UHGV virus genome: UHGV-0056727
Reading direction: 5' to 3' (one strand)
Length of the DNA: 15,656 bases
Origin: a virus
Positions within the stretch are counted from its first letter, which is position 1; each line of letters starts with the position of its first letter. Position numbers and translations under genes: made by a program. The notes beneath the pieces were generated by a model that was given only the letters and a program-made list of their open reading frames with translations, was not told where the DNA came from and ran no database searches. Shown here piece by piece: positions 1 through 15,248 of the stretch.

Positions 1-1
1 G

Positions 2-382
2 TCGGATGTTATCCGGTGGTGGCGAAAACAACCTTTTGATTTGCAAATCCCGGAGCACCTAGGGAACTGTGTTTTTTGCATCAAAAAGTCAACGCAAAAG
101 CTGGGGCTTGCATGTAAAGACGAACCTGGTCTGATGCGGGTTTTTAATGAACTGGTTACAGGTAAACACGTCCGGGATGGTCACCGAAAGACAAATAAAG
201 ACGTTATGTACCGTGGTCATCTGAGCCTTGACGGGATTGCCAGAATGTATGCCGACAGCGACTACAGAAATTTGTATCAGGCGATGGTGCAAGCCAGGCG
301 ATTCGATACCGGCTCGTGTTCAGAGTCATGTGAAATCTGGGGTGATCAATTGGAGTTGAAATTCGAAGAGGTGGTGGCATGA
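2..382 (+). CDS. Hypothetical protein, C-terminal part (5' end lies upstream of the window); contains CxxC and CxxxC motifs
   Basis: Frame 2 is open from nt 2 with no stop before TGA 380-382, which overlaps the next gene's ATG (ATGA at 379-382). Function not recognised. Confidence 0.5.
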   Translation, partial: SDVIRWWRKQPFDLQIPEHLGNCVFCIKKSTQKLGLACKDEPGLMRVFNELVTGKHVRDGHRKTNKDVMYRGHLSLDGIARMYADSDYRNLYQAMVQARRFDTGSCSESCEIWGDQLELKFEEVVA

Positions 383-1083
383 CAACCAAAATTAACTATC
401 AGGCACTACGTGAGATAGCAAAACAGGCAACACAGGGCGAATGGGTCGCGTTTATTTCGACGGGTACAGGTACGTATGCTGTGCATACGCCCGGTGATAA
501 ACGATGTGAAGATGTTATCAAATGGACCGGCTTTGATGGGCTGAAAAACGCAGAGAACAACGCTCGTTATGTTGCCGCATTCAACCCAAAGGTTGCACTG
601 GAGCTACTTGGTGAAATTAAGCGCCTGGAGGACACAAATATTGATGCTATGTGCCGAATAGCACCGCTTGAGACTAAGCTCGCGGCGCTGGTGGCAGAGA
701 ACGCCGGGCTGAAACACGCAATGGCCGTAACTCTTGAGCATGTGTCGGTCACGGATGCAGGGCAGGCTGGTGTTGCTGCAATGATTATCAACGATGCCCT
801 ACACCACAGCGAAACTCCAGCTACCGATGCTTTTCTGGCTGAAATTCGTGCGGAAGCACGCAACGAGGGGATTAACTATACCGCCAGCCGTCTTGCTGCT
901 GCGTTCAATCACGGATTTATCAATAAGTCTTTGCGTGAAGTTTTCGACGTTACACGCATGATTTTGTCAGCGAAAGAAGAGTTGGCTAATGAAGCGCATC
1001 CGATTGATGGCCTGTCTGGTGAATATGCGGAGAAATCCCTTGAAGAATGGGCGGAACAGATTCGCAAAGGAAGCAGCCAGTGA
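379..1083 (+). CDS. Ead/Ea22-like family protein (234 aa)
   Basis: N-terminus MTTKINYQALREIAKQATQGEW... is the signature I associate with Ead/Ea22-like phage proteins. ATG overlaps the upstream stop. Shares identical 21-23-nt blocks with the ORFs at 2378 and 2662. Confidence 0.7.
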   Translation: MTTKINYQALREIAKQATQGEWVAFISTGTGTYAVHTPGDKRCEDVIKWTGFDGLKNAENNARYVAAFNPKVALELLGEIKRLEDTNIDAMCRIAPLETKLAALVAENAGLKHAMAVTLEHVSVTDAGQAGVAAMIINDALHHSETPATDAFLAEIRAEARNEGINYTASRLAAAFNHGFINKSLREVFDVTRMILSAKEELANEAHPIDGLSGEYAEKSLEEWAEQIRKGSSQ

Positions 1084-1370
1084 ATATCGACACGACAATA
1101 ACGATCGATACGCTCCTAAATACCGGTCTGGCACTTCTCGGTTGGCTTTACATCATGTCCCGTACATGGCGATGGCTGGGTTCCATTTTCCTAAAACAGT
1201 GGAAAAAACGGCGCAAACAGGAACTACGCCAGAAGGCATTAGAAGCGTTCTATGACGCATTTGAGCTTAGCCGTATTGAACCAGGTACAACAGCCAGGAT
1301 AGCGACAAAAGGCGACCTGATGATAGTGATGTTCCGACAGGAGAGAGCAGAGAAAGGGGAATCAGCATGA
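1080..1370 (+). CDS. Small membrane protein (~96 aa from GTG 1080; alternative ATG at 1047), one predicted TM helix followed by a basic segment
   Basis: GTG 1080 overlaps the upstream stop (GTGA) and the stop overlaps the next ATG (ATGA 1367-1370). Hydrophobic stretch LLNTGLALLGWLYIM then WKKRRKQELRQK. Confidence 0.4.
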   Translation: MNIDTTITIDTLLNTGLALLGWLYIMSRTWRWLGSIFLKQWKKRRKQELRQKALEAFYDAFELSRIEPGTTARIATKGDLMIVMFRQERAEKGESA

Positions 1371-2080
1371 AATTTTCCAAATTTTCTGAGTTGGTGAATC
1401 GTATTTTGTCCAACAACCACAGCCATCGTCGCGATATGGATGTAACAATCGTTGTTCATTCGCCTGGCAGCATTGGTTCAACACCTTCAGTTGAGGTTCA
1501 GTCAATTCACGCTGGTTTTGATTGGGATTCCGGGAAAGTGCTTATTTTCCCATCACAGCCACTGACCACGCTAACACCAGAACAGATTACTGATATCACT
1601 GATAGTGTGCGCAAAGGTCAGTCTTGGCACGCATTTCAGGAATACAAGAAGCATCAAGAGCAGTTGGAAAAATTGTCGATTGAACTGGATGCCGCAAAAC
1701 AGCGCATTGCAGAGCTGGATGGTAATCGCACGGCGCTGGCAGTGGAGAATGCCTCAATGAAGCTGTTTATCAGGGGCTGTTGCTACGTGTTTGATGGCCA
1801 GCAGGATGAAATATCTGATGCGTATATCTGCGCAACAGACGGAGGGATGCCGCAAATTCCAGCCACCGACGCTTTCCTGGCTGAAGTTCGGGCGCAGGGG
1901 GTGGATGCTGCTATAGAAGCTGCAAAAAATCTGGTGGCCCAAGAATATGAGTATAAGGATTTCAAAGCGGCGCAGAGTGATTGCTGTATGCACCCTGGTT
2001 CAGACCGGGTAGGGAAGGTTGAAATGACTGAGTGGTTAGTTGACTTTGCTGCCCAGCTTCGCAAAGGAGGCAACCAGTGA
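1367..2080 (+). CDS. Hypothetical protein (237 aa) with a C-terminal module paralogous to that of the 379..1083 protein
   Basis: ATG with upstream AAGGGGA RBS. C-terminal block ...TDAFLAEVRAQG...QLRKGGNQ parallels ...TDAFLAEIRAEA...QIRKGSSQ of the first Ead-like protein. Confidence 0.65.
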   Translation: MKFSKFSELVNRILSNNHSHRRDMDVTIVVHSPGSIGSTPSVEVQSIHAGFDWDSGKVLIFPSQPLTTLTPEQITDITDSVRKGQSWHAFQEYKKHQEQLEKLSIELDAAKQRIAELDGNRTALAVENASMKLFIRGCCYVFDGQQDEISDAYICATDGGMPQIPATDAFLAEVRAQGVDAAIEAAKNLVAQEYEYKDFKAAQSDCCMHPGSDRVGKVEMTEWLVDFAAQLRKGGNQ

Positions 2081-2376
2081 CTGTATGTCTTATTGATAAA
2101 CGTCGACGTGGGCAACAAATACCATCTGTTGAAATGCCGAATCACACATGGTTTTGCGTACTTGATATCGATGGTATGGATACGTTGGTTGACACTCGTC
2201 ATTACTGCGATACCGCAACAGCTACTCCGGCGAAAGCAAAGAAAATGGCTGCTCTGATAGAAAACTGGACTCCACCTGATGGTTGGTGCAATGGGAATGA
2301 TCGAGATTGGCACGAAAAAATGAAGGGCTATATCTGCGATTTTTTACGTAAATGCAACGGCTTCAGGGTGATGTGA
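2077..2376 (+). CDS. Small Cys-containing hypothetical protein (99 aa), GTG start
   Basis: GTG 2077 overlaps the upstream stop (GTGA), the same junction architecture as at 1080. The stop is 1 nt before the next ATG. Confidence 0.4.
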   Translation: MTVCLIDKRRRGQQIPSVEMPNHTWFCVLDIDGMDTLVDTRHYCDTATATPAKAKKMAALIENWTPPDGWCNGNDRDWHEKMKGYICDFLRKCNGFRVM

Positions 2377-2377
2377 T

Positions 2378-2665
2378 ATGACCAAAATTAACTATCAGGC
2401 ACTGCGTGAGGCGGCAGAACGTGCAATTCCGGCAATGGAACGTCTGTCAATGTTGCCAGTTGATGATGATTTGTTAAGTGAACAGGAACTTAAAGATTAC
2501 GGTGTGGATATTGATGCGCTCAACGCCTTCAAATTTCTGGCCGGACCAGAAACCGTGCTGGCGCTGCTGGATGAAAACGAAAGACTGTGTCGCGAGCTGA
2601 TAGCTCGTAATGGTGAGATTGAAGGGCTTCGGAAGTGGGCAGAAGAACGGGAGATGCAACCATGA
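2378..2665 (+). CDS. Short Ead-like N-terminal-domain protein (95 aa)
   Basis: ATG 2378 preceded by GGGTGA. N-terminus MTKINYQALREAAERA... A 23-nt block (2381-2403) is identical to 385-407. Confidence 0.6.
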   Translation: MTKINYQALREAAERAIPAMERLSMLPVDDDLLSEQELKDYGVDIDALNAFKFLAGPETVLALLDENERLCRELIARNGEIEGLRKWAEEREMQP

Positions 2666-3591
2666 TGACTTTTACCAGCGAACAATTAGCTACCTTACGT
2701 AAGATAGCGCAACAGGCAACACAGGGCGAATGGCGTGCATTCATCTCGCCGGACACTGGTACATATGCGGTGCATACGCCGGGGGATGAACGTTGCGGAG
2801 ACATTATCAAATGGCCTGGCTTTGACGGCCAGAAAAATGCAGAGAACAACGCAGAATTTATCGCAGCTTTCAACCCTAAATTAGTGCAGACACTGCTGGA
2901 TGAACGGGAAAGAAACCAGCAATACATCAAACGCCGCGACCAGGAGAACGAGGGGATTGCGCTTACGGTTGGGAAGCTGCGTGTTGAGCTTGAAGCAGCA
3001 AAATCAAAACTCAACGAGCAGCGTGAATATTACGAGGGAGTAATCGCGGATGGAAGTAAGCGCATAGCAGAACTGGAAAAACAATGCGCCGAATGGGAGC
3101 GAAAAGCATTAAGCAACTTTGAAGAGTGTGCTGCGATGGCTGAACGTATCGAAGAGATGCAGACAAAATCTGCACCAGATTCGTTTGGCATCATCGGTGA
3201 AAATATTCGAACACAGGACAATCGAATAACGTCAGATCCCATGTTTTGTGTGTATCAAAAGCGCGAAATCGCTGTTGATGCTGATTATGACCATGACCGG
3301 ATTGTCTGGGTTGACGAAGATGGCAATGAAGCCAATAAACGCCATAGTCGTCGTCTCGAGCTACTTCATGAAAACTTTCGAGAGCCACCAGAAAAATGGC
3401 GGCGCGTTGCTGTGAAAGATATTGATGAATTCGTTACCTGCTGTTTCACCGAACAGGGTTGTAAAGACTACCTGGCAGTCAATGGTCACAATCTTCGCTT
3501 GCCATTTATATATGTAAAAAGCGGTTTCAGGAACGCTGAATATATCGGCATAAGAAACTGGCTTGCTGGCATTCGCATCAAAGGAGAGTGA
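2662..3591 (+). CDS. Ead/Ea22-like family protein (309 aa from ATG 2662) with a coiled-coil middle and a distinct C-terminal domain
   Basis: ATG 2662 overlaps the upstream stop (ATGA). N-terminal ...QQATQGEWRAFISPDTGTYAVHTPGDERCGDIIKWPGFDGQKNAENNAEFIAAFNPK is about 70% identical to the 379 protein. Identical 21-mer at 2714-2734 and 424-444. Confidence 0.7.
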   Translation: MMTFTSEQLATLRKIAQQATQGEWRAFISPDTGTYAVHTPGDERCGDIIKWPGFDGQKNAENNAEFIAAFNPKLVQTLLDERERNQQYIKRRDQENEGIALTVGKLRVELEAAKSKLNEQREYYEGVIADGSKRIAELEKQCAEWERKALSNFEECAAMAERIEEMQTKSAPDSFGIIGENIRTQDNRITSDPMFCVYQKREIAVDADYDHDRIVWVDEDGNEANKRHSRRLELLHENFREPPEKWRRVAVKDIDEFVTCCFTEQGCKDYLAVNGHNLRLPFIYVKSGFRNAEYIGIRNWLAGIRIKGE

Positions 3592-3592
3592 T

Positions 3593-4110
3593 ATGGCGTT
3601 AACACACCGCGAACTCTGTCAGATTGCGTACAAGTTCCTTAAGCGCAACGGGTTCAAGGTTTGCTTTCATGACCGCTTTATAGCTGTAACCAGTACCGGA
3701 GAACAGCCAGATGCTATGGGATTCAGAAATTCAGCATCATGCTTGATAGAGGCGAAGTGTTCTCGTGCTGACTTGTTGGCAGATAGAAAAAAGCGTTTCC
3801 GTAAAAATCCGTCTCTTGGAATGGGCGACTGGCGATATTCTTTATTAGTGAGCCGGGAATTATTTCAGTTGAGGATTTACCTCCCGGCTGGGGATTACTT
3901 CACGTTGTTAACGGAAGAGTACGGAAAGTACATGGATGGCCCAAGGGGAATTGCTGTTGGGGTAATCCTGACGATAAGCCATTTACTGGGAATAAGCAGG
4001 TTGAATGCGATTACATGTTATCTGCATTAAGGCGCATGGAGCTAAGAGGACACCTTAATGAAATATATGACGGTGTAATTGTTAATAAGAAAGAAGGAAA
4101 CGCGGCATGA
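3593..4110 (+). pseudogene. Putative PD-(D/E)xK-motif protein apparently interrupted by a frameshift (frame 2 from ATG 3593, continuing in frame 1 to stop 4108-4110)
   Basis: Strong RBS AAGGAGAG before ATG 3593. PD...EAK motif in frame 2 (EQPDAMGFRNSASCLIEAKCS). Frame 1 is open 3805-4110, has no usable start, and ends on the ATGA overlap with the next gene. The annotated frame-2 ORF ends at 4030, leaving a 77-nt gap. Confidence 0.4.
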
Positions 4111-4463
4111 CCACTATTACCGACAAAGAACTGATTAAAGAAATCAAAGAGCGCATAGGCAGCTTGGACGTTCGAGACAATATTGAGCGCCGTGCTTATG
4201 AAATTGCACTGGCATCGCTGGAAGCAGAACCGATAGCGTGGGAATGCGGTGAAAACATAATCCTGTTTAACCCTGACACAGTTGAAGCATACGCAAAACG
4301 TGCGGAAATATCACCTAAACCACTATTCTCCGCGCCGCCAGCGCTGGTAGTGCCTGATAAGTTGCCGCGTGAATACAGAAACGGTTGGCCTCTTGCGTAT
4401 AGTGATTATGCTGAAGGCTGGAACGACTGCCGCGAAGCCATGCTTCAGGGAGATAAATCATGA
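4107..4463 (+). CDS. Hypothetical acidic protein (118 aa)
   Basis: ATG/stop overlaps with both neighbours (ATGA at 4107 and 4460). Confidence 0.65.
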   Translation: MTTITDKELIKEIKERIGSLDVRDNIERRAYEIALASLEAEPIAWECGENIILFNPDTVEAYAKRAEISPKPLFSAPPALVVPDKLPREYRNGWPLAYSDYAEGWNDCREAMLQGDKS

Positions 4464-4819
4464 TTAATCGTATCAAGCTGGAGCACATCCTCGAATATGC
4501 CAGGCAGCAGAGGCATATTGGTCAGCATTGTAAAATTCCACCAGGAGATATGGTTGAAATCATGGAGATTGCCATGCGCAAGGCTGGCAACTCTCCGGTA
4601 ACTCCGGATGGTTGGATAAGCTGTAGTGAGCGAATGCCGAATACCAAAACAGCCGTTCTTGTTGCCGTGGAGTTTGACAGGAAAGGTGACTGGCGAATGA
4701 AATGGGCTACTTACATCCCGGGGCATCCTGACGCTAATGATGGGTGGATAATTCCTGGTGCGTCGTGGAAACCGTCACACTGGATGCCGCTACCAGAACC
4801 GCCGCAGGAGGCAAAATGA
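4460..4819 (+). CDS. DUF551-like phage protein (119 aa)
   Basis: C-terminal W...RMP...VLVA...W...SHWMPLPEPP pattern, which I recall as DUF551. Coupled to both neighbours. Confidence 0.65.
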   Translation: MINRIKLEHILEYARQQRHIGQHCKIPPGDMVEIMEIAMRKAGNSPVTPDGWISCSERMPNTKTAVLVAVEFDRKGDWRMKWATYIPGHPDANDGWIIPGASWKPSHWMPLPEPPQEAK

Positions 4820-5076
4820 TGGATGTAAAAGAGAAGGTTTTGCAGGTGATACGTTCCCGTGCTGCCCTGCAAGAGAAAGCTCTCGGCGGGGAATATCCAT
4901 TCACGATAGCAACCTGGAATCTGCGGTTGGCAATGGAGAAGGAATTTCCTGATGAAGAATGGCGTTCGGCAGATTTGCGCAAAATTCTTATGGAGATGGC
5001 TAAAGATGGAACAGTATCCAAAGATACCCATGCCAGCCGGATTGGTCAGGCGGTATGGAGACTGGAGGTGAGATAA
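4816..5076 (+). CDS. Hypothetical protein (86 aa)
   Basis: ATG 4816 with AGGAGG RBS 7 nt upstream, overlapping the upstream stop. The ORF-track start at 4744 is a GTG extension in the same frame. Confidence 0.6.
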   Translation: MMDVKEKVLQVIRSRAALQEKALGGEYPFTIATWNLRLAMEKEFPDEEWRSADLRKILMEMAKDGTVSKDTHASRIGQAVWRLEVR

Positions 5077-5159
5077 TGAGCTGGCCTGAAGCATTCGCAA
5101 CGGTAGGAATTGTGATGGCGGCAGCACTGGGTTTGTATTCAATTTGTCGCTGGTGGTAA
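5076..5159 (+). CDS. Small hydrophobic peptide (27 aa, MSWPEAFATVGIVMAAALGLYSICRWW)
   Basis: ATG overlaps the upstream TAA (TAATG). GGAGG RBS 8 nt upstream. Single hydrophobic helix. Too short to be in the ORF track. Confidence 0.3.
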   Translation: MSWPEAFATVGIVMAAALGLYSICRWW

Positions 5160-5161
5160 CG

Positions 5162-5395
5162 ATGGGAAAATTAACTTTTGTAGTCGAATTTGAGGATGGT
5201 AAAGAGCCACCTGTTAGCGCCAATCTTGATGTTGCTGGTGGCAGGCTTGTTTCGGTTCTATTTGGTGACTACCGAGATGACTTCTTCCAACCAGAAGAAG
5301 TTGATGTAGTGCGAGAGGCATTAAACGAGTTAAGTGTTGATAACGATGATGCTCATGCGGAAATCATCCAAAAAATGGAACTGCTAACTCACTAA
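5162..5395 (+). CDS. Small strongly acidic protein (77 aa, about 18 D/E against 6 K/R)
   Basis: ATG 5162 lies 2 nt after the stop of the peptide ORF, with GGTGG upstream. The track start at 5144 is a TTG extension. Confidence 0.5.
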   Translation: MGKLTFVVEFEDGKEPPVSANLDVAGGRLVSVLFGDYRDDFFQPEEVDVVREALNELSVDNDDAHAEIIQKMELLTH

Positions 5396-5443
5396 ATTAT
5401 CAATTATGGTGCTATCACCTACGACACCGAGAGAAAATTTATA

Positions 5444-5566
5444 ATGTCAAAAGTAAATGTTTTGATTTTTTCAGCAATTGTTGGCTTTGGTTTTACTGCC
5501 GGAGTGCAGATTTATATTACGTGGAAAAAAATCATCAACTACGCATGGAGTTGTTTTATTAAGTGA
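5444..5566 (+). CDS. Possible small single-TM peptide (40 aa) in an AT-rich spacer
   Basis: ATG 5444, hydrophobic core VLIFSAIVGFGFTAGVQIYI then WKKIINYAW. No convincing RBS, so this could equally be a non-coding promoter region. Confidence 0.25.
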   Translation: MSKVNVLIFSAIVGFGFTAGVQIYITWKKIINYAWSCFIK

Positions 5567-5573
5567 GGTAAGT

Positions 5574-5867
5574 ATGTGGAGAGGTAATAATCATGGCAAA
5601 AGCCAGATGATACTTACCGAATATAAGCTAGACCACAAAACCAATAAATCACGCTCAGTATATTTGCTCCGGCACAATAGTCGCGTAAGAAATACCGTGC
5701 TGGAACAAAATCTGACAGTTGAAATGGATAATTACGGGGGCTTCAAGCCAGCAATTTCGCTTGATGATTTTCCTCGTGGTTTAAGCGAAAGAGAAGCAAT
5801 GCTGAAATTAGCAGAATGGCTACAAAGATTAAGCATTGCTATTGAAGATAACTGGTCTGAACCTTAA
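5574..5867 (+). CDS. Hypothetical protein (97 aa)
   Basis: ATG 5574 with GAGGT RBS 4 nt upstream. The track ORF 5478..5867 is the same frame from an upstream TTG. Confidence 0.45.
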   Translation: MWRGNNHGKSQMILTEYKLDHKTNKSRSVYLLRHNSRVRNTVLEQNLTVEMDNYGGFKPAISLDDFPRGLSEREAMLKLAEWLQRLSIAIEDNWSEP

Positions 5868-5873
5868 ATTTAT

Positions 5874-6248
5874 ATGATGACACTAAAACATTTTCTTGAC
5901 CGCCCATTATGGGCGGCAGCCGCAGGCTATGACTTTAATTATATGGATTGCATGTCTTATACTGCCAATGCATACGACCATTCGTTCAGCCTGCTGTTTA
6001 ATTCTTTAAGAATATTGCCGGAAACAGAAGTTGGAGAGCTTCATTTATGGCTATTGGGCTTTATCGCGGCTGTCGTTGGTATTGCTGTATGGCCTTTTAT
6101 TTTCTGGCTGGTGGCTGTTGTAGTGTGGTTTAAGTGCAAGACATACCGGAAAAAGTATTTCTTAGGTGATGGAATGACTGATATTGCCAAAATGAACATT
6201 GAAAAATGGACTAAGGAATGTGAAAAGAAATGGCGCAAAAAGAAATGA
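5874..6248 (+). CDS. Membrane protein (124 aa) with a roughly 30-residue hydrophobic segment and a polybasic C-terminus
   Basis: Segment LHLWLLGFIAAVVGIAVWPFIFWLVAVVVWF followed by KCKTYRKKY...KKWRKKK. AT-rich coding sequence, no clear RBS. Confidence 0.4.
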   Translation: MMTLKHFLDRPLWAAAAGYDFNYMDCMSYTANAYDHSFSLLFNSLRILPETEVGELHLWLLGFIAAVVGIAVWPFIFWLVAVVVWFKCKTYRKKYFLGDGMTDIAKMNIEKWTKECEKKWRKKK

Positions 6249-6871
6249 CCAGAATCACTGAAGAGCGTATATCAGAGATTATTTCCCGTATCGAAATGTA
6301 TGGTCACGGTGCTGGATATACGGCAGATGAAGTATTGGAAATAGCCCAGCAGATGCTGGCCTTGAGACAAAAAGAGCAACATGAAAGTAATACGTGTAGA
6401 TTTAATTTTGAGCAGTGGCTGGAACAGCAACGCGGAAAAATCGATGTGGACTGTGGTTGTGTGTCCACTGAAACATTCATGCACTGGCTGCGGGTAGCTT
6501 ACGAGGCTGGCAACTATCCGGATAGTTCGGTGCCAGCGCCAGGAAAGGGCGTCACCGGTGAACGTATCCGCATTAAGCCGCATGTTTATCGCGAACTGGT
6601 TAACCGTCTCCACGATACAGCGATCAAGTGTGCTGGCACCCAGCAATTACGAGAAAAAATTAGCCGTGTTTTGGGCGACGTTATTACGCCAGATCATCAT
6701 AAACAAGTCGAGAAAAGTGGCCTGGAAAGATGTCACCTTGAGGCGGCATTAAACATTAAGCCAGGGCATACGCTTGGCATTATTGATGCACTATTGGTTC
6801 ATAAGATGGCCAGGGCTTTATTGCCGCTGGTGGCTGATAAGCAAGAGGCGGGCCATGCCAACGAAAGCTGA
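6245..6871 (+). CDS. Hypothetical protein (208 aa from ATG 6245; in-frame ATG at 6230 also possible)
   Basis: ATG 6245 overlaps the upstream stop (ATGA). No recognisable domain. Confidence 0.55.
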   Translation: MTRITEERISEIISRIEMYGHGAGYTADEVLEIAQQMLALRQKEQHESNTCRFNFEQWLEQQRGKIDVDCGCVSTETFMHWLRVAYEAGNYPDSSVPAPGKGVTGERIRIKPHVYRELVNRLHDTAIKCAGTQQLREKISRVLGDVITPDHHKQVEKSGLERCHLEAALNIKPGHTLGIIDALLVHKMARALLPLVADKQEAGHANES

Positions 6872-7139
6872 GTTACAGGCGCGCATAGAGATTCTTGAAA
6901 AAGAGAATGCGAGTCTAAAAGGAATGCTGGCGCGGGCTGAAAGGGAATTATCAGGCAAATTATTGCCAGAAGAACTGCCACCAGCAGATATACCAGATCG
7001 AGTGTCCCGGTGGATGAAGTCTTTTGGTTTACCGTGGGAGGCTTTTTGGTGCTACGAGCATCGCAGATGGTGTGATGAACTTGATAGCAGTTTCCCCTAC
7101 TTTGCGGAAGGGAACACCTGCCCTGAGTGTAGGAGGTAG
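6855..7139 (+). CDS. Small protein (94 aa) with an N-terminal coiled-coil-like segment and a C-terminal CxxH...C...CxxC putative zinc-binding motif
   Basis: ATG 6855 preceded by GAGGCGG. The track ORF 6774..7139 is an upstream extension of the same frame. Motif WCYEHRRWC...CPEC. Confidence 0.5.
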   Translation: MPTKAELQARIEILEKENASLKGMLARAERELSGKLLPEELPPADIPDRVSRWMKSFGLPWEAFWCYEHRRWCDELDSSFPYFAEGNTCPECRR

Positions 7140-7143
7140 CGCG

Positions 7144-7401
7144 ATGTTTCGTCCTCGTCCAATACCGCCGAAAATAACTAATGGCTATCAGCCGAATACT
7201 CCAGAAATACAAGGGAGCGAGGGGCTTAAACCACCAGCACCACGTATTCCGCCTGTAGCAAGGAACGTATCATTACGACGAGAGTTAATATTAGCCTTGT
7301 CGCCCGTTCTGGCTGCCCGCCAGGATTGGGTAAGTAATGATGACCTGGCAGAAAAAATCACATCGCTGGTGGATAAAATTCTGCATAAAGCTGATCTCTG
7401 A
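7144..7401 (+). CDS. Hypothetical protein (85 aa), Pro-rich N-terminus
   Basis: ATG 7144 with AGGAGGT RBS. Last gene before a terminator hairpin. Confidence 0.55.
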   Translation: MFRPRPIPPKITNGYQPNTPEIQGSEGLKPPAPRIPPVARNVSLRRELILALSPVLAARQDWVSNDDLAEKITSLVDKILHKADL

Positions 7402-7412
7402 TCACCATGCTA

Positions 7413-7443
7413 AAATCCCCTCAATTCACAGAGGGGATTTTTG
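7413..7443 (+). terminator. Rho-independent terminator-like hairpin (stem ATCCCCTC / GAGGGGAT, 8-nt loop, followed by TTTTT)
   Basis: Perfect 8-bp GC-rich stem plus a U-run 12 nt after the stop at 7399-7401. The 3' stem arm GAGGGG is also the only SD-like sequence for the ATG at 7447. Confidence 0.55.
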
Positions 7444-7446
7444 TCT

Positions 7447-7713
7447 ATGTTGCATAGAGTTTTATGGAAAAGCGTTATTGTCGGCGCGATACTGGCTATA
7501 TCTGGGTGTGCAATGGTGCAATACAACGACGGTGAAAAGGTAAGCATACAGTCAGATGGTTGGTATGGCCTGGATAGCCTGCAAAAAACCGCAGATAAAG
7601 CCTGTCAGCAATATGGGAAGTCTAAAGCAGTATATCAGCATAGCGCGAACGCTAACCCTCATCTAGCGCCCGGTTCGGGTGTTCAGAATACCATCTGGAA
7701 ATGTGAGCCTTAA
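7447..7713 (+). CDS. Putative lipoprotein (88 aa; signal peptide with lipobox LAISG-C)
   Basis: N-terminus [21 protein letters not shown] is a classic lipoprotein signal. It sits where P1 has a small gene next to hot (possibly lxr, symbol not certain). Confidence 0.6.
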
Positions 7714-10410: not shown

Positions 10411-10427
10411 ATTGCTCTAATGTATTG
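10411..10427 (+). promoter_or_regulatory. C1 operator-like 17-mer ATTGCTCTAATGTATTG upstream of lpa
   Basis: 13/17 match to the asymmetric C1 operator consensus ATTGCTCTAATAAATTT, starting 2 nt after the pdcB stop. Confidence 0.55.
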
Positions 10428-11035: not shown

Positions 11036-12229
11036 GTGACCTGGGACGATCACAAGAAGAATTTTGCTCGCCTGGCGCGAGATGGTGGTTACACCATCGC
11101 ACAGTATGCCGCCGAGTTTAATCTTAACCCTAATACCGCACGTCGTTATCTCCGTGCCTTCAAAGAAGACACCAGGACTACGGACAGCCGCAAGCCAAAT
11201 AAGCCAGTCAGGAAGCCACTAAAAAGCATGATCATTGATCACTCTAATGATCAACATGCAGGTGATCACATTTCGGCTGAAATAGCGGAAAAACAAAGAG
11301 TTAATGCCGTTGTCAGTGCCGCAGTCGAGAATGCGAAGCGCCAAAATAAGCGCATAAATGATCGTTCAGATGATCATGACGTGATCACCCGCGCCCACCG
11401 GACCTTACGTGATCGCCTGGAACGCGACACCCTGGATGATGATGGTGAACGCTTTGAATTCGAAGCTGGCGATTACCTGATAGATAACGTTGAAGCGCGG
11501 AAGGCCGCGCGCGCTATGTTGCGTCGGTCCGGGGCCGATGTTCTGGAAACCACTCTTCTGGAAAAGTCTCTTTCTCATCTCCTTATGCTGGAGAACGCCA
11601 GGGATACGTGTATTCGCCTAGTGCAGGAAATGCGCGATCAGCAAAAAGACGATGATGAAGGTACTCCGCCTGAATACCGTATCGCGAGCATGCTAAACAG
11701 CTGTTCCGCGCAGATAAGCAGCCTGATCAACACCATTTACAGCATCCGGAATAACTATCGAAAAGAAAGCCGGGAGGCGGAAAAGCACGCTTTATCTATG
11801 GGGCAAGCTGGCATTGTTAAGCTGGCATACGAACGAAAGCGTGAAAATAACTGGTCAGTGCTGGAAGCGGCTGAATTCATCGAGGCGCATGGAGGAAAAG
11901 TGCCGCCCCTGATGCTGGAGCAAATCAAAGCCGATCTGCGTGCTCCTAAGACCAATACCGATGATGAGGAAAACCAAACAGCATCTGGCGCTCCATCACT
12001 TGAAGATCTGGATAAAATCGCGCGAGAACGGGCCGCCAGCCGCCGCGCTGATGCGGCATTGTGGATTGAGCATCGTAGAGAAGAAATTGCCGATATCGTC
12101 GATACAGGTGGTTATGGTGATGTCGATGCGGAAGGCATATCAAACGAAGCATGGCTTGAACAGGATCTGGACGAAGACGAGGAGGAAGACGAAGAAGTTA
12201 CCCGCAAACTGTACGGGGATGATGATTAA
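11036..12229 (+). CDS. pacA: PacA, small terminase / pac-recognition subunit (397 aa), acidic C-terminal tail
   Basis: GTG 11036 with AAGGAAG RBS. N-terminus [10 protein letters not shown]... The pac hexamer array lies inside the 5' part of the gene, as in P1. Stop overlaps the pacB ATG. Confidence 0.85.
11229..11387 (+). other. pac packaging site: 4 + 3 TGATC(A/G) hexamers, each carrying a Dam GATC, flanking the cleavage region
   Basis: TGATCA at 11229, 11236, 11248 and 11263; TGATCG at 11359; TGATCA at 11371 and 11382. This is the arrangement described for P1 pac. Confidence 0.8.
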
Positions 12230-13713
12230 TGGCCAGAAGTTGCGTAACGGACCCACGTTGGCGCGAGCTGGTGGCGCTATATCGTTATGACTGGATTGCG
12301 GCCGCTGATGTGTTGTTTGGGAAGACACCAACCTGGCAGCAGGATGAGATCATTGAGTCCACGCAGCAGGACGGCAGTTGGACAAGTGTGACCTCCGGCC
12401 ATGGTACTGGTAAATCGGATATGACGAGTATCATTGCAATACTCTTCATCATGTTTTTCCCCGGCGCTCGCGTCATTCTGGTCGCTAACAAAAGACAGCA
12501 AGTCCTTGATGGTATTTTCAAATACATAAAGAGCAATTGGGCTACTGCTGTTAGCAGATTCCCGTGGTTGTCGAAGTATTTCATTCTTACAGAAACGTCT
12601 TTTTTTGAGGTGACTGGCAAGGGTGTTTGGACAATATTGATAAAGTCCTGTCGCCCCGGAAATGAGGAGGCGTTGGCTGGTGAACACGCCGATCATCTCT
12701 TGTATATCATCGACGAAGCGTCGGGTGTGAGTGATAAAGCATTCAGTGTGATAACAGGTGCGCTGACCGGTAAGGATAACCGTATTCTGCTTCTTTCCCA
12801 GCCTACGCGACCTTCAGGCTATTTCTACGATTCACACCACAGACTAGCTATTCGCCCGGGAAATCCTGATGGATTGTTTACTGCGATAATACTGAATAGT
12901 GAAGAATCTCCGCTTGTAGATGCAAAATTTATACGAGCAAAACTTGCGGAGTATGGCGGTCGTGATAACCCCATGTACATGATCAAAGTACGTGGTGAAT
13001 TTCCCAAATCTCAAGATGGCTTTCTTCTTGGTCGTGATGAGGTTGAGCGGGCGACGCGGCGAAAGGTCAAGATTGCCAAAGGATGGGGCTGGGTTGCATG
13101 TGTTGACGTTGCTGGTGGCACAGGACGAGATAAGTCCGTTATTAATATCATGATGGTGTCCGGCCAGCGAAATAAACGCCGTGTAATCAACTATCGTATG
13201 CTGGAATACACAGACGTTACAGAAACGCAGTTAGCCGCCAAGATTTTCGCAGAATGTAACCCAGAACGGTTCCCGAACATAACCATAGCTATTGATGGCG
13301 ATGGCTTGGGGAAATCGACGGCTGATCTAATGTACGAACGCTATGGCATTACCGTCCAGCGTATCCGCTGGGGTAAAAAGATGCACAGCCGTGAAGATAA
13401 AAGCCTTTATTTCGATATGCGCGCTTTCGCGAATATTCAGGCGGCAGAAGCTGTAAAATCAGGGCGTATGAGGCTTGATAAGGGGGCTGCGACTATAGAG
13501 GAAGCATCAAAGATACCGGTAGGGATAAATTCCGCAGGTCAATGGAAGGTGATGTCAAAGGAAGATATGAAGAAAAAACTCAACCTGCACTCACCGGACC
13601 ATTGGGATACATATTGTTTCGCTATGTTGGCGAACTATGTTCCCCAAGATGAAGTGCTTAGCGTCGAAGACGAAGCGCAGGTTGATGAAGCTCTGGCATG
13701 GCTTAATGAATAA
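12229..13713 (+). CDS. pacB: PacB, large terminase subunit (494 aa)
   Basis: Walker A-like [14 protein letters not shown] motif, and the length and position expected for P1 PacB. Confidence 0.9.
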
Positions 13714-14684: not shown

Positions 14685-14701
14685 AGATTTATTAGTGCAT
14701 T
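14685..14701 (-). promoter_or_regulatory. C1 operator-like site (14/17 on the minus strand) at the coi stop / c1 leader
   Basis: Plus-strand AGATTTATTAGTGCATT compared with the reverse-complement consensus AAATTTATTAGAGCAAT. Confidence 0.45.
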
Positions 14702-15148: not shown

Positions 15149-15165
15149 TAATTTATTAGAGCAAT
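15149..15165 (-). promoter_or_regulatory. C1 operator (16/17) within a TTGACA-N15/16-TATAGT-like promoter reading toward coi and c1
   Basis: Minus strand reads TTGACAATTGCTCTAATAAATTATAGTT; the operator fills the promoter spacer. Confidence 0.65.
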
Positions 15166-15231: not shown

Positions 15232-15248
15232 ATTGCTCTAATAATTCT
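15232..15248 (+). promoter_or_regulatory. C1 operator-like 17-mer ATTGCTCTAATAATTCT (15/17)
   Basis: Faces the operator at 15149-15165, 43 bp before loxP. Confidence 0.6.

Follow-up and report, generated by a model that had tools for sequence, protein, structure and literature searches.

The 15,656-nucleotide stretch of DNA analysed here (UHGV virus genome UHGV-0056727, referred to as the window) carries on its plus strand a short open reading frame (ORF) of 27 codons plus TAA at 5076..5159, which runs from the ATG at 5076-5078 to the stop codon at 5157-5159 and encodes the microprotein MSWPEAFATVGIVMAAALGLYSICRWW. The last base of the TAA of the upstream gene (5074-5076) is also the first base of this ATG, giving a TAATG stop/start overlap at 5074..5078 that constitutes a translational coupling junction. 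A Shine-Dalgarno (SD) motif, GGAGG, is located at 5064..5068, 7 nt 5' of the ATG and within the last codons of the upstream gene; the overlapping start, the position of the SD inside the upstream coding sequence and its spacing (5-9 nt being the range sought) are those of a translationally coupled gene. The upstream gene (4816..5076, plus strand) encodes an 86-amino-acid protein assigned to phrog_2814 and is itself preceded by a gene with a DUF551 domain match (4460..4819, plus strand). On the other side, the ATG at 5162 of a gene for a 77-amino-acid acidic protein (phrog_3876; 5162..5395, plus strand) lies 2 nt past the microprotein stop, and the GGTGG at 5152..5156, within the last codons of the microprotein ORF, is likely, as read from the sequence, to be the SD of this gene. 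An initial annotation had given these coordinates, the TAATG overlap, the GGAGG ribosome-binding site and the 2-nt gap to the next ATG, all of which are correct on the sequence. It had also described the ORF as unannotated, and the slot is indeed empty in the near-identical RefSeq plasmid pNJS001-1 and in phage SJ46, as it is in every RefSeq record inspected, that of phage 933W among them.

A second in-frame ATG at 5055..5057 (plus strand) would yield a 34-amino-acid form, in which METGGEI precedes the peptide. This codon is probably not the normal start of the microprotein: it is limited to the context of the 86-amino-acid upstream gene, and in SJ46 the equivalent ATG is followed by an in-frame TGA.

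The microprotein gene lies in an 'ea-like' accessory operon, a long series of co-directional genes of a P1-like phage-plasmid, in which ribosomes ending the upstream gene, or loading on the GGAGG, would initiate at the overlapping ATG. The first terminator-like hairpin with a clear U-tract found downstream on the plus strand by a terminator scan, at 7412..7441, is likely to end this operon, a weaker consensus match being present at 6760-6778. No promoter-like site was detected on the plus strand before 8027, nor on either strand at or near 5076-5159. A search for C1 operators located them close to lpa, inside pacB and around c1 and nowhere else, leaving the accessory block with no such site on its upstream side. 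The window yielded no promoter for the operon. On the minus strand, an ORF of 170 amino acids (4711..5223) spans the microprotein ORF. A structured RNA element was considered and rejected: the window contains no match to an Rfam family, and shuffled controls fold better than the 161-nt region does (z = +2.2).

Distribution and genomic contexts

The microprotein gene is present in 1452 of 5426 complete E. coli genomes, in a total of 2148 copies with up to six per genome, as well as in 90 phage records including 933W and VT2-Sakai. Across 89 unique contexts it follows at least five unrelated upstream genes, among them DUF551 genes, the most frequent direct upstream neighbours elsewhere, phrog_2814 genes, a coiled-coil gene ending in '...NIEQEVNR' and Ead-like genes ending in '...ISVEDILR'. 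A start/stop overlap, either ATGA or TAATG, is kept in essentially all of these contexts, and GGAGG or AGGAGG is found at the same distance in nearly all of them, whatever the upstream gene, GGAGGA also occurring; phage 933W has a weaker SD, AAGGTG. At least ten different sequences follow the ORF, including the 77-amino-acid gene, several terminator hairpins and hok/sok. On the chromosome, the microprotein gene is in most contexts the final ORF before a terminator or hok/sok, and in 933W and many O157 prophages it lies directly upstream of hokW/sokW. The 77-amino-acid gene accompanies it in P1-like plasmids and not in most chromosomal prophages. Early or accessory genes (DUF551, Ead/Ea22-like, hot, humD, phd/doc) surround the cassette across contexts; lysis genes were not found nearby, and the adjacent endolysin or spanin gene that would mark a holin or antiholin by location is absent. 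In these arrangements the gene behaves as a self-contained cassette, composed of the SD and the ORF, that recombination has brought behind many different Ead/Ea22/DUF551-type genes in lambdoid prophages, including the Stx phage 933W, and in P1-like plasmids.

No family was found for the peptide in Pfam, PHROG, NCBIfam or PADLOC. The 27-, 34- and 24-amino-acid forms gave no match to the PHROG profiles, whereas all neighbouring genes did. Two subthreshold hits were rejected, namely the Pfam family DUF7512 (16.5-17.5 bits, below the gathering threshold of 27), a compositional match of hydrophobic segments, and KdpF (TIGR02115; 14.7 bits, below the cut-off of 26.85). Protein databases were searched with a natural 40-amino-acid stop-loss variant and then with the family alignment. 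The exact window peptide is absent from a collection of 15 billion proteins, and one GenBank entry differs from it by a single residue (A8T). GenBank entries of 27-40 amino acids, labelled 'bacteriophage', 'prophage' or 'hypothetical protein', belong to the same family and occupy the same genomic slot, as exemplified by EIL24003.1 (MSWPEAFTTVGIVMAAALGLYSICRWW), AOM45384.1 (MTWPEAFTTVGIAMAVALVVYSICRWG), UVY42991.1 (the SJ46-type allele) and WP_290124247.1 (a 40-amino-acid form). They are sporadic automatic predictions, for which no function, family model or publication was found. An apparent fusion to DUF551, suggested by a 90% cluster shared with 121-amino-acid DUF551 proteins, proved to be a clustering artefact, since the sequences share nothing.

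A degenerate DNA pattern, run against 185,579 genomes, returned five matches, in Escherichia, in Shigella, in one likely contaminant contig and in one high-GC MAG; as about one match is expected by chance, the last of these is by itself no proof of a wider family. Profile searches did find divergent family members among metagenomic and other enterobacterial sequences. The motif 'WPEAF' occurs in no relevant paper of the literature searched, and the peptide was not found in the available part of the supplements of the Sakai small-gene Ribo-seq paper or of the supplementary files of the Enterobacteriaceae microproteome paper (PMC11188072).

Conservation and coding status

The initial annotation had argued from placement, which it considered too good to be random. 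Taken alone, this argument is weak: the TAATG and the GGAGG form part of the 3' end of the upstream gene, and their junction is a general docking site also used by other genes. In most lambdoid relatives, a gene encoding an ASCH domain starts there. A stretch of 27 codons free of stops is expected by chance with a probability of about (61/64)^27 = 0.27. Judged from its own letters, the window does not show more than chance, and the non-random signal comes from the comparison with relatives.

Thirty-six distinct 84-nt alleles were compared, about half of which encode the identical peptide MTWPEAFTTVGIAMAVALVVYSICRWG. Their mean pN/pS is 0.18, and a minimum spanning tree contains 57 synonymous and 33 non-synonymous changes, when 23-26% synonymous would be expected (p ~1e-14; as the sequences are related to one another, the counts are only partly independent). 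Changes in the stop codon always produce another stop, and forward frames +1 and +2 are interrupted by stops in all 36 alleles. Intact alleles differ in length by multiples of 3 nt only (6, 9 or 12 nt), through in-frame 6-nt (Ala-Met) expansions and one 12-nt deletion, among others. The first 33 nt are far more conserved than the remainder of the ORF. The SJ46 allele, MSWPEAFAIVGVAMAIAAIFIFWG, illustrates how far the rest can diverge: with 24 residues, a length difference of 9 nt and only 15 of 42 positions matching in its 3' part (ungapped), it is still open and still hydrophobic. Even where the 3' halves are unalignable, alleles retain the reading frame, the start, the position of the stop and the hydrophobic character.

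The wobble-coincident antisense frame, as expected, mirrors the synonymous excess (49 versus 23), and for this reason the selection test alone does not fix the strand, which rests on the start codon, the SD, the cassette boundaries and the hydrophobic character of the product. That antisense frame has no start and no ORF of 20 or more amino acids in the window. An antisense gene in the frame of the 170-amino-acid ORF was also rejected, this frame containing stops in 32 of the 36 alleles.

Conservation of the ORF and of its coupling, which the initial annotation had proposed as a check, was found in most relatives, while a minority show loss of the start, a frameshift or loss of the stop. Disruption with conserved flanking genes, which it had named as the observation that would speak against a gene, is confined to such a minority: the start codon is changed to ATA (the SJ46-type allele) in 5 of the 89 unique contexts, with both flanking genes intact, and in 16 of the 44 loci that have both flanking genes. 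One frameshift and two stop-loss variants occur among the 89 contexts, and more are present in the protein database. The existence of these variants indicates that the gene is dispensable in some lineages, although the upstream ATG at 5055 may rescue those with an ATA start. Purifying selection, indels in multiples of three and the recurrence of the overlap and SD behind at least five unrelated genes bear out the view of a real coupled gene. The ORF at 5076..5159 is almost certainly translated; it is a genuine gene, maintained by selection and missed by standard annotation, whose tiny product is a predicted single-helix membrane peptide.

The predicted membrane helix

The window peptide carries an [S/T/N]-W-P-E-A-F cap at its N-terminus and R-W-W at its C-terminus, with 19 residues (A6-C24) making up the hydrophobic core; the corresponding C-terminal cap in the family is the basic and aromatic Y-S-I-C-R-W-G/W. 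Its best 19-residue window, AFATVGIVMAAALGLYSIC, has a mean Kyte-Doolittle value of 1.98. AlphaFold2 predicts one helix, with a mean pLDDT of 84 and values of about 92-98 over the helix core, and W3 and W26 flank the hydrophobic core. Hydrophobicity and the AlphaFold2 model thus both describe a single-pass membrane segment, with a helix of about 19 or more residues and interfacial aromatic and charged flanks, in keeping with the single transmembrane helix suggested by the initial annotation. The product is, on these predictions, very probably a membrane helix.

A family, here termed W-P-E-A-F, was defined by [S/T/N]-W-P-[E/D]-A-[F/I/L], G11, a 19-residue hydrophobic core, an aromatic residue at 21 and a basic and aromatic pair at 25-26. 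The window peptide displays every one of these features in alignments and profile searches. Distant members keep W-P-E-A-F, G11, the aromatic residue at 21 and the basic residue at 25, while the core diverges. The sequence S/T-x-x-E is known as a helix capping box, and residue 2 (S, T or N) and residue 5 (E or D) would together fit such a role. Variability along the helix has no significant 100-degree periodicity (permutation p = 0.80), so a single conserved binding face has no statistical backing and is not claimed.

Net charge is negative on the N-terminal flank in 141 of 146 family sequences and positive on the C-terminal flank in 120 of 146. From the acidic N-terminal and basic C-terminal caps, an N-out/C-in topology is predicted; this orientation, which also relies on the positive-inside rule and on the precedent of the Pf3 phage coat protein, is reasonably probable. 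The Pf3 coat, a structural protein of a filamentous-phage virion, is 44 residues long, adopts an N-out/C-in topology and is inserted in a YidC-dependent manner, and the proton-motive force drives the translocation of short acidic N-tails such as its own. It resembles the microprotein in its short acidic N-tail, single hydrophobic helix and basic C-terminal flank and serves as a model for the predicted topology and route of insertion, although the microprotein is roughly half as long and shows neither homology to it nor a structural role. Upon insertion into the inner membrane, the short acidic N-terminus would be periplasmic and the Arg/Trp end would lie at the cytoplasmic face.

Possible modes of action

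The initial annotation had suggested that the peptide might inhibit a host membrane protein or be a toxin. Several small inner-membrane regulators of enterobacteria (AcrZ, MgtS, MgrB, PmrR, KdpF and CydX) are shorter than 50 residues, span the membrane with one helix and lack a signal peptide; they work by attaching to a larger membrane protein inside the bilayer. The microprotein is similar to them in size and in having a single transmembrane helix, and a shared mode of action is the favoured proposal. It differs from them in lacking any sequence relationship, no curated family model scoring above its cut-off, and in being a mobile phage cassette of early operons, while these regulators are chromosomal and have their own regulation. 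By lateral helix-helix contact, the peptide would bind a larger membrane protein of the host or the phage and modulate it, the invariant end motifs together with G11, A15 and L18 acting as specificity determinants. The explanation as a whole, a mobile mini-gene for a membrane helix that modulates a membrane-protein partner, is considered likely; that the peptide acts through binding of such a partner is, taken separately, a tentative proposal.

The microprotein also shares features with the intergenic small ORF families of Enterobacteriaceae, of which 67,297 clusters under purifying selection, mostly hydrophobic, have been described (PMC11188072). As portrayed there, these ORFs of 15-70 codons lie between annotated genes, are hydrophobic and evolve under purifying selection, as does the present gene, which is set apart by its behaviour as a mobile cassette in phage early operons and by its conserved W-P-E-A-F cap. 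It is conceivable, though rather doubtful, that the W-P-E-A-F class as a whole represents bilayer-embedded phage modulators of a specific host inner-membrane protein, active early in the lytic cycle, or else a detachable tail anchor that brings Ead/Ea22/DUF551 early proteins to the membrane. On the modulator reading, a transporter, a DNA-entry route, a protease or an insertase would be candidate targets, and takeover of the target protein or exclusion of other phages candidate effects.

Among the alternatives, a membrane-depolarizing or pore-forming toxin comparable to TisB, DinQ, ShoB or Hok, which would help to shut down the host or to set the timing of lysis once the early operon is turned on, is unlikely, even though several features recall such proteins. 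Type I toxins (Hok/Gef, TisB, DinQ, ShoB, Ibs, Ldr) are like the microprotein in size, hydrophobicity and single transmembrane segment (24-27 residues in the microprotein), and the small-residue motif G11-x3-A15, extended to G11-x3-A15-x3-G19 in the window allele, is of the kind used in helix oligomerization. Hok is a physical neighbour in 933W-like prophages, and the position directly upstream of hokW/sokW could be taken to mean that membrane-active peptides cluster there; this adjacency is, however, one among at least ten downstream contexts. Moreover, the gene combines a strong SD with coupling to upstream genes, instead of its own promoter and tightly repressed translation, and neither an antisense promoter-like site over the ORF nor an Rfam antitoxin RNA was found. 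The peptide matches no toxin family in Pfam, NCBIfam or PADLOC, its core contains no charged or strongly polar residues that could line a pore, and a single genome can tolerate as many as six copies.

A membrane tether or partner of the upstream protein, that is, a split-off tail anchor recruiting soluble Ead/Ea22-like or DUF551-type proteins to the inner membrane, is distinctly improbable. The cassette does lie almost always directly 3' of, and coupled to, an Ead/Ea22/DUF551-type gene or the phrog_2814 gene located behind such a gene. In one lineage the upstream Ead/Ea22-like gene runs into the peptide in the same frame without an intervening stop, and two diverged fused versions, P0101 (143 residues) and P0107 (206 residues), provide a hint of the Rosetta-stone type. 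Nevertheless, the upstream partners belong to several families with unrelated C-terminal ends, and the fusion is restricted to two clusters. The fused forms also retain an internal ATG with GGAG 9 nt 5' of it, so that the free peptide could still be made, or the fusions could be gene-caller extensions.

It would be very surprising if only the act of translating the ORF mattered, with ribosomes handed from the upstream gene to the 77-amino-acid gene and the peptide itself irrelevant. Both junctions in the window are tight (a 1-nt overlap and a 2-nt gap), and the last codons of the ORF hold the likely SD of the 77-amino-acid gene, but selection acts on the amino-acid sequence, distant homologues of that gene are coupled straight to their own upstream gene without the mini-ORF, and the relay would lack a recipient in most chromosomal contexts, where the ORF is the last one ahead of a terminator or hok/sok. 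Finally, a chance ORF, conserved as DNA (a recombination linker or an RNA element) or read on the other strand, is hardly credible: an open frame of this length is not rare, the more conserved first 33 nt could serve as a recombination junction, the 170-amino-acid antisense ORF overlaps it and the wobble-coincident antisense frame shares the synonymous excess, but the reading frame and hydrophobicity persist across alleles with unalignable 3' halves, intact alleles differ by multiples of three, no Rfam match or stable fold exists and neither antisense frame offers a maintained ORF.

The microprotein gene is a concrete and well-supported case of a functional gene that current annotation has missed, with no model in PHROGs, Pfam or NCBIfam. 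Within E. coli it is very common, about a quarter of the complete genomes carrying it, and it occurs in EHEC prophages and in P1-like phage-plasmids that carry resistance. A product of 27 residues is easily synthesized, tagged and mutated. Should it be merely a dispensable accessory peptide, the practical consequence would be limited to better annotation. If a host membrane protein is indeed its target, it would add a phage example to the few characterized membrane microprotein regulators. The microprotein could also help to make sense of the unexplained Ead/Ea22/DUF551 accessory regions and, were the tail-anchor reading true, would give the long-enigmatic 'ea' genes a first functional handle.

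Setting of the ORF in the window

The window is 99% identical to the E. coli plasmid pNJS001-1 across 90% of its length and is collinear with the P1-like phage-plasmids SJ46, P7, RCS47 and P1, its gene order running from a lambdoid 'ea'-type accessory block, which includes Ead/Ea22-like, DUF4752 and DUF551 genes, to hot, humD, phd/doc, pdcB, lpa, pacA/B and c1. Despite the close match to pNJS001-1, pacA is an intact 397-aa ORF in the window (11036–12229) and is annotated as frameshifted in the plasmid (comparison locus L167, 11913–13107). From the start of the window to ~7.4 kb every gene lies on the + strand; no promoter-like site was found on this strand ahead of 8027, and no hairpin before the one at 7412–7441 has a clear U-tract. 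Sites resembling the P1 C1-repressor operator (ATTGCTCTAATAAATTT; one to three mismatches, chance expectation 0.07) are located at 10411–10427, 12925–12941, 14685–14701, 15149–15165 and 15232–15248, upstream of lpa, within pacB and around c1, and none was found in the accessory block (1–7400).

Within this block, the ORF at 5076..5159 (+ strand) encodes MSWPEAFATVGIVMAAALGLYSICRWW, followed by TAA. Its ATG at 5076 uses the last A of the TAA stop (5074–5076) of the upstream 86-aa phrog_2814 gene (4816..5076), a Shine–Dalgarno sequence GGAGG (5064–5068) lies 7 nt ahead of this ATG, and the downstream 77-aa phrog_3876 gene starts at 5162, 2 nt past the stop, all of which agrees exactly with the initial annotation. 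In a mechanical ORF list the frame begins further upstream, at an in-frame ATG (5055), and codes for a 34-aa form. Since an open frame of 27 codons has a chance probability of ~0.27, the window by itself is no proof of a gene. The ORF had been considered too well placed to be random; the placement is accurate, but is not evidence in itself, because, among lambdoid relatives of the 86-aa gene, most use the same GGAGG...TAATG junction to initiate an ASCH-domain gene, MANLQLAVKGEYF... (loci L099, L096, L115 and others, at the equivalent of 5064–5078, the end of the phrog_2814 gene). In some relatives, a hairpin follows what is left of this ASCH-domain gene, a truncated stub of 13 codons (MANLQLAVKGE*). 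The junction does show that any sequence occupying the slot is translated as ordinary genes are.

Another small ORF with a hydrophobic product (5444–5566, + strand; 40 aa, MSKVNVLIFSAIVGFGFTAGVQIYITWKKIINYAWSCFIK) separates the 77-aa gene from the 97-aa gene. Its PHROG match is phrog_5525 (E = 1e-23); SJ46 annotates it as J46_0090, RefSeq pNJS001-1 does not, and it has a weak Shine–Dalgarno sequence (GAGAG, ~10 nt upstream). A leftward promoter-like site, TTGCCA-17-CATACT (5599–5571, - strand), is a consensus match at 9 of 12 positions, and an RNA from it would be antisense to this ORF.

Coding selection and variant alleles

Loci gathered through the flanking proteins and a degenerate DNA pattern provided 89 unique sequence contexts. 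These contain 26 variants of the peptide and 36 distinct alleles of 84 nt, about half of which differ in their synonymous codons and specify one and the same peptide, MTWPEAFTTVGIAMAVALVVYSICRWG. The ORF is a real gene under purifying selection in these relatives: mean pN/pS is 0.18, and a minimum spanning tree contains 57 synonymous versus 33 non-synonymous changes, where 23–26% synonymous changes are expected (p ~1e-14). The stop codon is replaced solely by other stop codons, and in each of the 36 alleles the remaining two forward frames are closed by stops. As expected, the wobble-coincident antisense frame used as a control displays the same synonymous excess (49 versus 23); it contains no ORF in the window. 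A 170-aa antisense ORF of the window was also considered and rejected, its frame being interrupted by stops in 32 of the 36 alleles.

In the divergent SJ46-type allele (MSWPEAFAIVGVAMAIAAIFIFWG, 24 aa), the 3' part matches at 15 of 42 positions (ungapped) and the length differs by 9 nt, while start and frame are kept, the product stays hydrophobic and the next gene still begins after a gap of 2 nt. A 12-nt deletion allele is also present, and in-frame Ala-Met hexanucleotide expansions generate forms of 29–35 aa; in five database sequences (P0064, P0065, P0066, P0072 and P0162), GCGATG-type expansions lengthen the transmembrane helix by 2–8 residues (e.g. ...GIAMAMAMAMAMAVALVVY...). Slippage alters the helix length with the frame unbroken.

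The initial annotation had named disruption of the ORF between conserved flanking genes as evidence against it. Such disruption does occur: the ATG of the SJ46-type allele is replaced by ATA (TAATAAGC) in five of the 89 contexts, corresponding to 16 of the 44 loci with both flanks intact (among them L052, L083 and L263, at the equivalent of 5076–5078). In these variants the upstream in-frame ATG (5055 equivalent) is open, allowing a possible METGGEVISWPE... form, whereas in the ATG-bearing SJ46 the upstream frame is closed by TGA; the ATA variants are either null alleles or initiate at the upstream ATG. Frameshift and stop-loss variants exist and are rare. Together, these losses are typical of an accessory gene and do not overturn the selection signal.

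A mobile cassette and its wider family

The ORF with its Shine–Dalgarno sequence is a mobile cassette. Upstream genes of at least five kinds precede it, encoding several DUF551 proteins (ending ...PEPPQEVNQ), phrog_2814, a coiled-coil protein (ending ...NIEQEVNR), Ead-like proteins (ending ...ISVEDILR) and others; it invariably overlaps them by ATGA or TAATG, so that the coupling noted in the window is maintained in relatives. Two unrelated upstream genes share their final 18 nt (CAGGAGGTGAATCRATGA), and the cassette therefore brings its own ribosome-binding site. Downstream, P1-like plasmids have the 77-aa gene; other sequences that follow the cassette are several differing terminator hairpins and the hok/sok locus. 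The latter, seen with Stx phage 933W and numerous O157 prophages, is the commonest context besides the 77-aa gene among the loci collected. The copy in the Stx2 phage 933W, MTWPEAFANVGTVMAVVLVVYSICRWR (NC_000924.1, ~58826–58909, minus strand; L295, 2501–2584), is unannotated and overlaps the ST933Wp77 stop directly upstream of sokW/hokW.

BLASTN located the 84-nt ORF in 1452 of 5426 complete E. coli genomes, in up to six copies per genome (2148 in total, 1987 chromosomal and 161 on plasmids), and TBLASTN in 90 phage records, including 933W, VT2-Sakai, Min27 and BP-4795. Its unannotated status was borne out: the slot is empty in the RefSeq records inspected, pNJS001-1 and SJ46 leave it unannotated, and it appears sporadically in GenBank as a 'bacteriophage protein' or a 'hypothetical protein' (EIL24003.1, AOM45384.1, UVY42991.1). 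One divergent allele, read from an upstream start, corresponds to a 40-aa hypothetical protein on >1000 contigs. None of the Pfam, PHROG, NCBIfam and PADLOC models searched matches the microprotein, and its motif was not found in the literature searched.

The 90%-identity cluster containing the 27-aa peptide is represented by a 121-aa DUF551 protein with no sequence in common with it, and several GenBank entries name the peptide 'DUF551 domain-containing protein, partial'. The cluster was probably chained through mislabelled partial ORFs (e.g. GGESMTWPEAF...), an artefact of the database that may lead to wrongly transferred annotations. The 369-bp contig JQCU01000559.1 (L165), assigned to 'Acinetobacter idrijaensis', carries a one-residue variant of the window peptide in the DUF551/microprotein/77-aa order of E. 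coli phage loci, and is most likely to be a contamination of that assembly.

Profile searches, one against 1.84 billion representative proteins and a second that was word-indexed, retrieved divergent members, all unnamed (MNWPEAFAITGVAMAIAFLVYVICRWGKNVRRD; MTWPEAFVIVGVVLGFAWIVHSVCKWLEN...; MNWPEAFVIVGIFVSMAFIIWAVMRYNRVE...), some on non-enterobacterial metagenome contigs with an ATGA overlap and a Shine–Dalgarno sequence. Family-wide conservation comprises [S/T/N]2-W3-P4-[E/D]5-A6-[F/I/L]7, G11, usually A15, an aromatic residue at 21, a basic residue at 25 and an aromatic residue at 26. Two longer relatives from beyond the enterobacteria were also observed: a 52-aa ORF on a metagenome contig (MTWPEAFVIVGVVLGF...; L292, 137–295), with a Shine–Dalgarno sequence and an ATGA overlap, and a 65-aa ORF in a high-GC Pseudobdellovibrionaceae MAG (MTWPEAFAIVGVAF...; L162, ~7458–7655, - strand), with a Shine–Dalgarno sequence, a match which alone may be due to chance, about one being expected.

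Predicted topology and possible functions

The single transmembrane helix proposed initially is consistent with the AlphaFold2 model, which predicts one helix spanning residues 10–33 of the 34-aa form (3–26 of the peptide; mean pLDDT 84, ~92–98 in the helix core), and with a Kyte–Doolittle mean of 1.98 over the best 19-residue window. The N-terminal flank has a net negative charge in 141 and the C-terminal flank a net positive charge in 120 of 146 family sequences, which, by the positive-inside rule and by analogy with the Pf3 coat protein, suggests N-out/C-in insertion. The S/T/N-x-x-E/D pattern would fit a helix capping box, setting the start of the helix at the interface.

We tentatively consider that the microprotein modulates a larger membrane protein from within the bilayer. 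Three features speak for a specific and benign binder: end motifs that are conserved while the core varies, a coupling to early genes that is strong and constitutive, and the fact that several copies are tolerated. A conserved helical face was looked for and not found (p = 0.80). The size of the microprotein and the hok neighbourhood would also suit a depolarising toxin-like peptide, an unlikely identity, as it lacks the regulation that defines type I toxins. A function as a tether for the upstream Ead/Ea22/DUF551 proteins appears doubtful, although their genes are constantly adjacent and two in-frame fusions are found (P0101 and P0107): in a metagenomic lambdoid prophage (L289, 3001–3432) an Ead/Ea22-like gene runs into the microprotein without a stop (...PPLESNK-MSWPDAFAIAGVAMSIALIVFAICRWG), the internal ATG retaining GGAG 9 nt upstream, and the product is predicted to be a C-terminally anchored Ead-like protein. 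A pure ribosome relay is excluded by the varied contexts of the cassette and by distant homologues of the 77-aa gene that lack the ORF. A relay-only ORF and a non-gene are both highly improbable.

Hydrophobic microprotein genes are a known kind (PMC11188072), of which this ORF is an unrecognised member, and the initial annotation was essentially right. The ORF is notable for being so prevalent, for moving like a cassette and for the W-P-E-A-F cap that it conserves.
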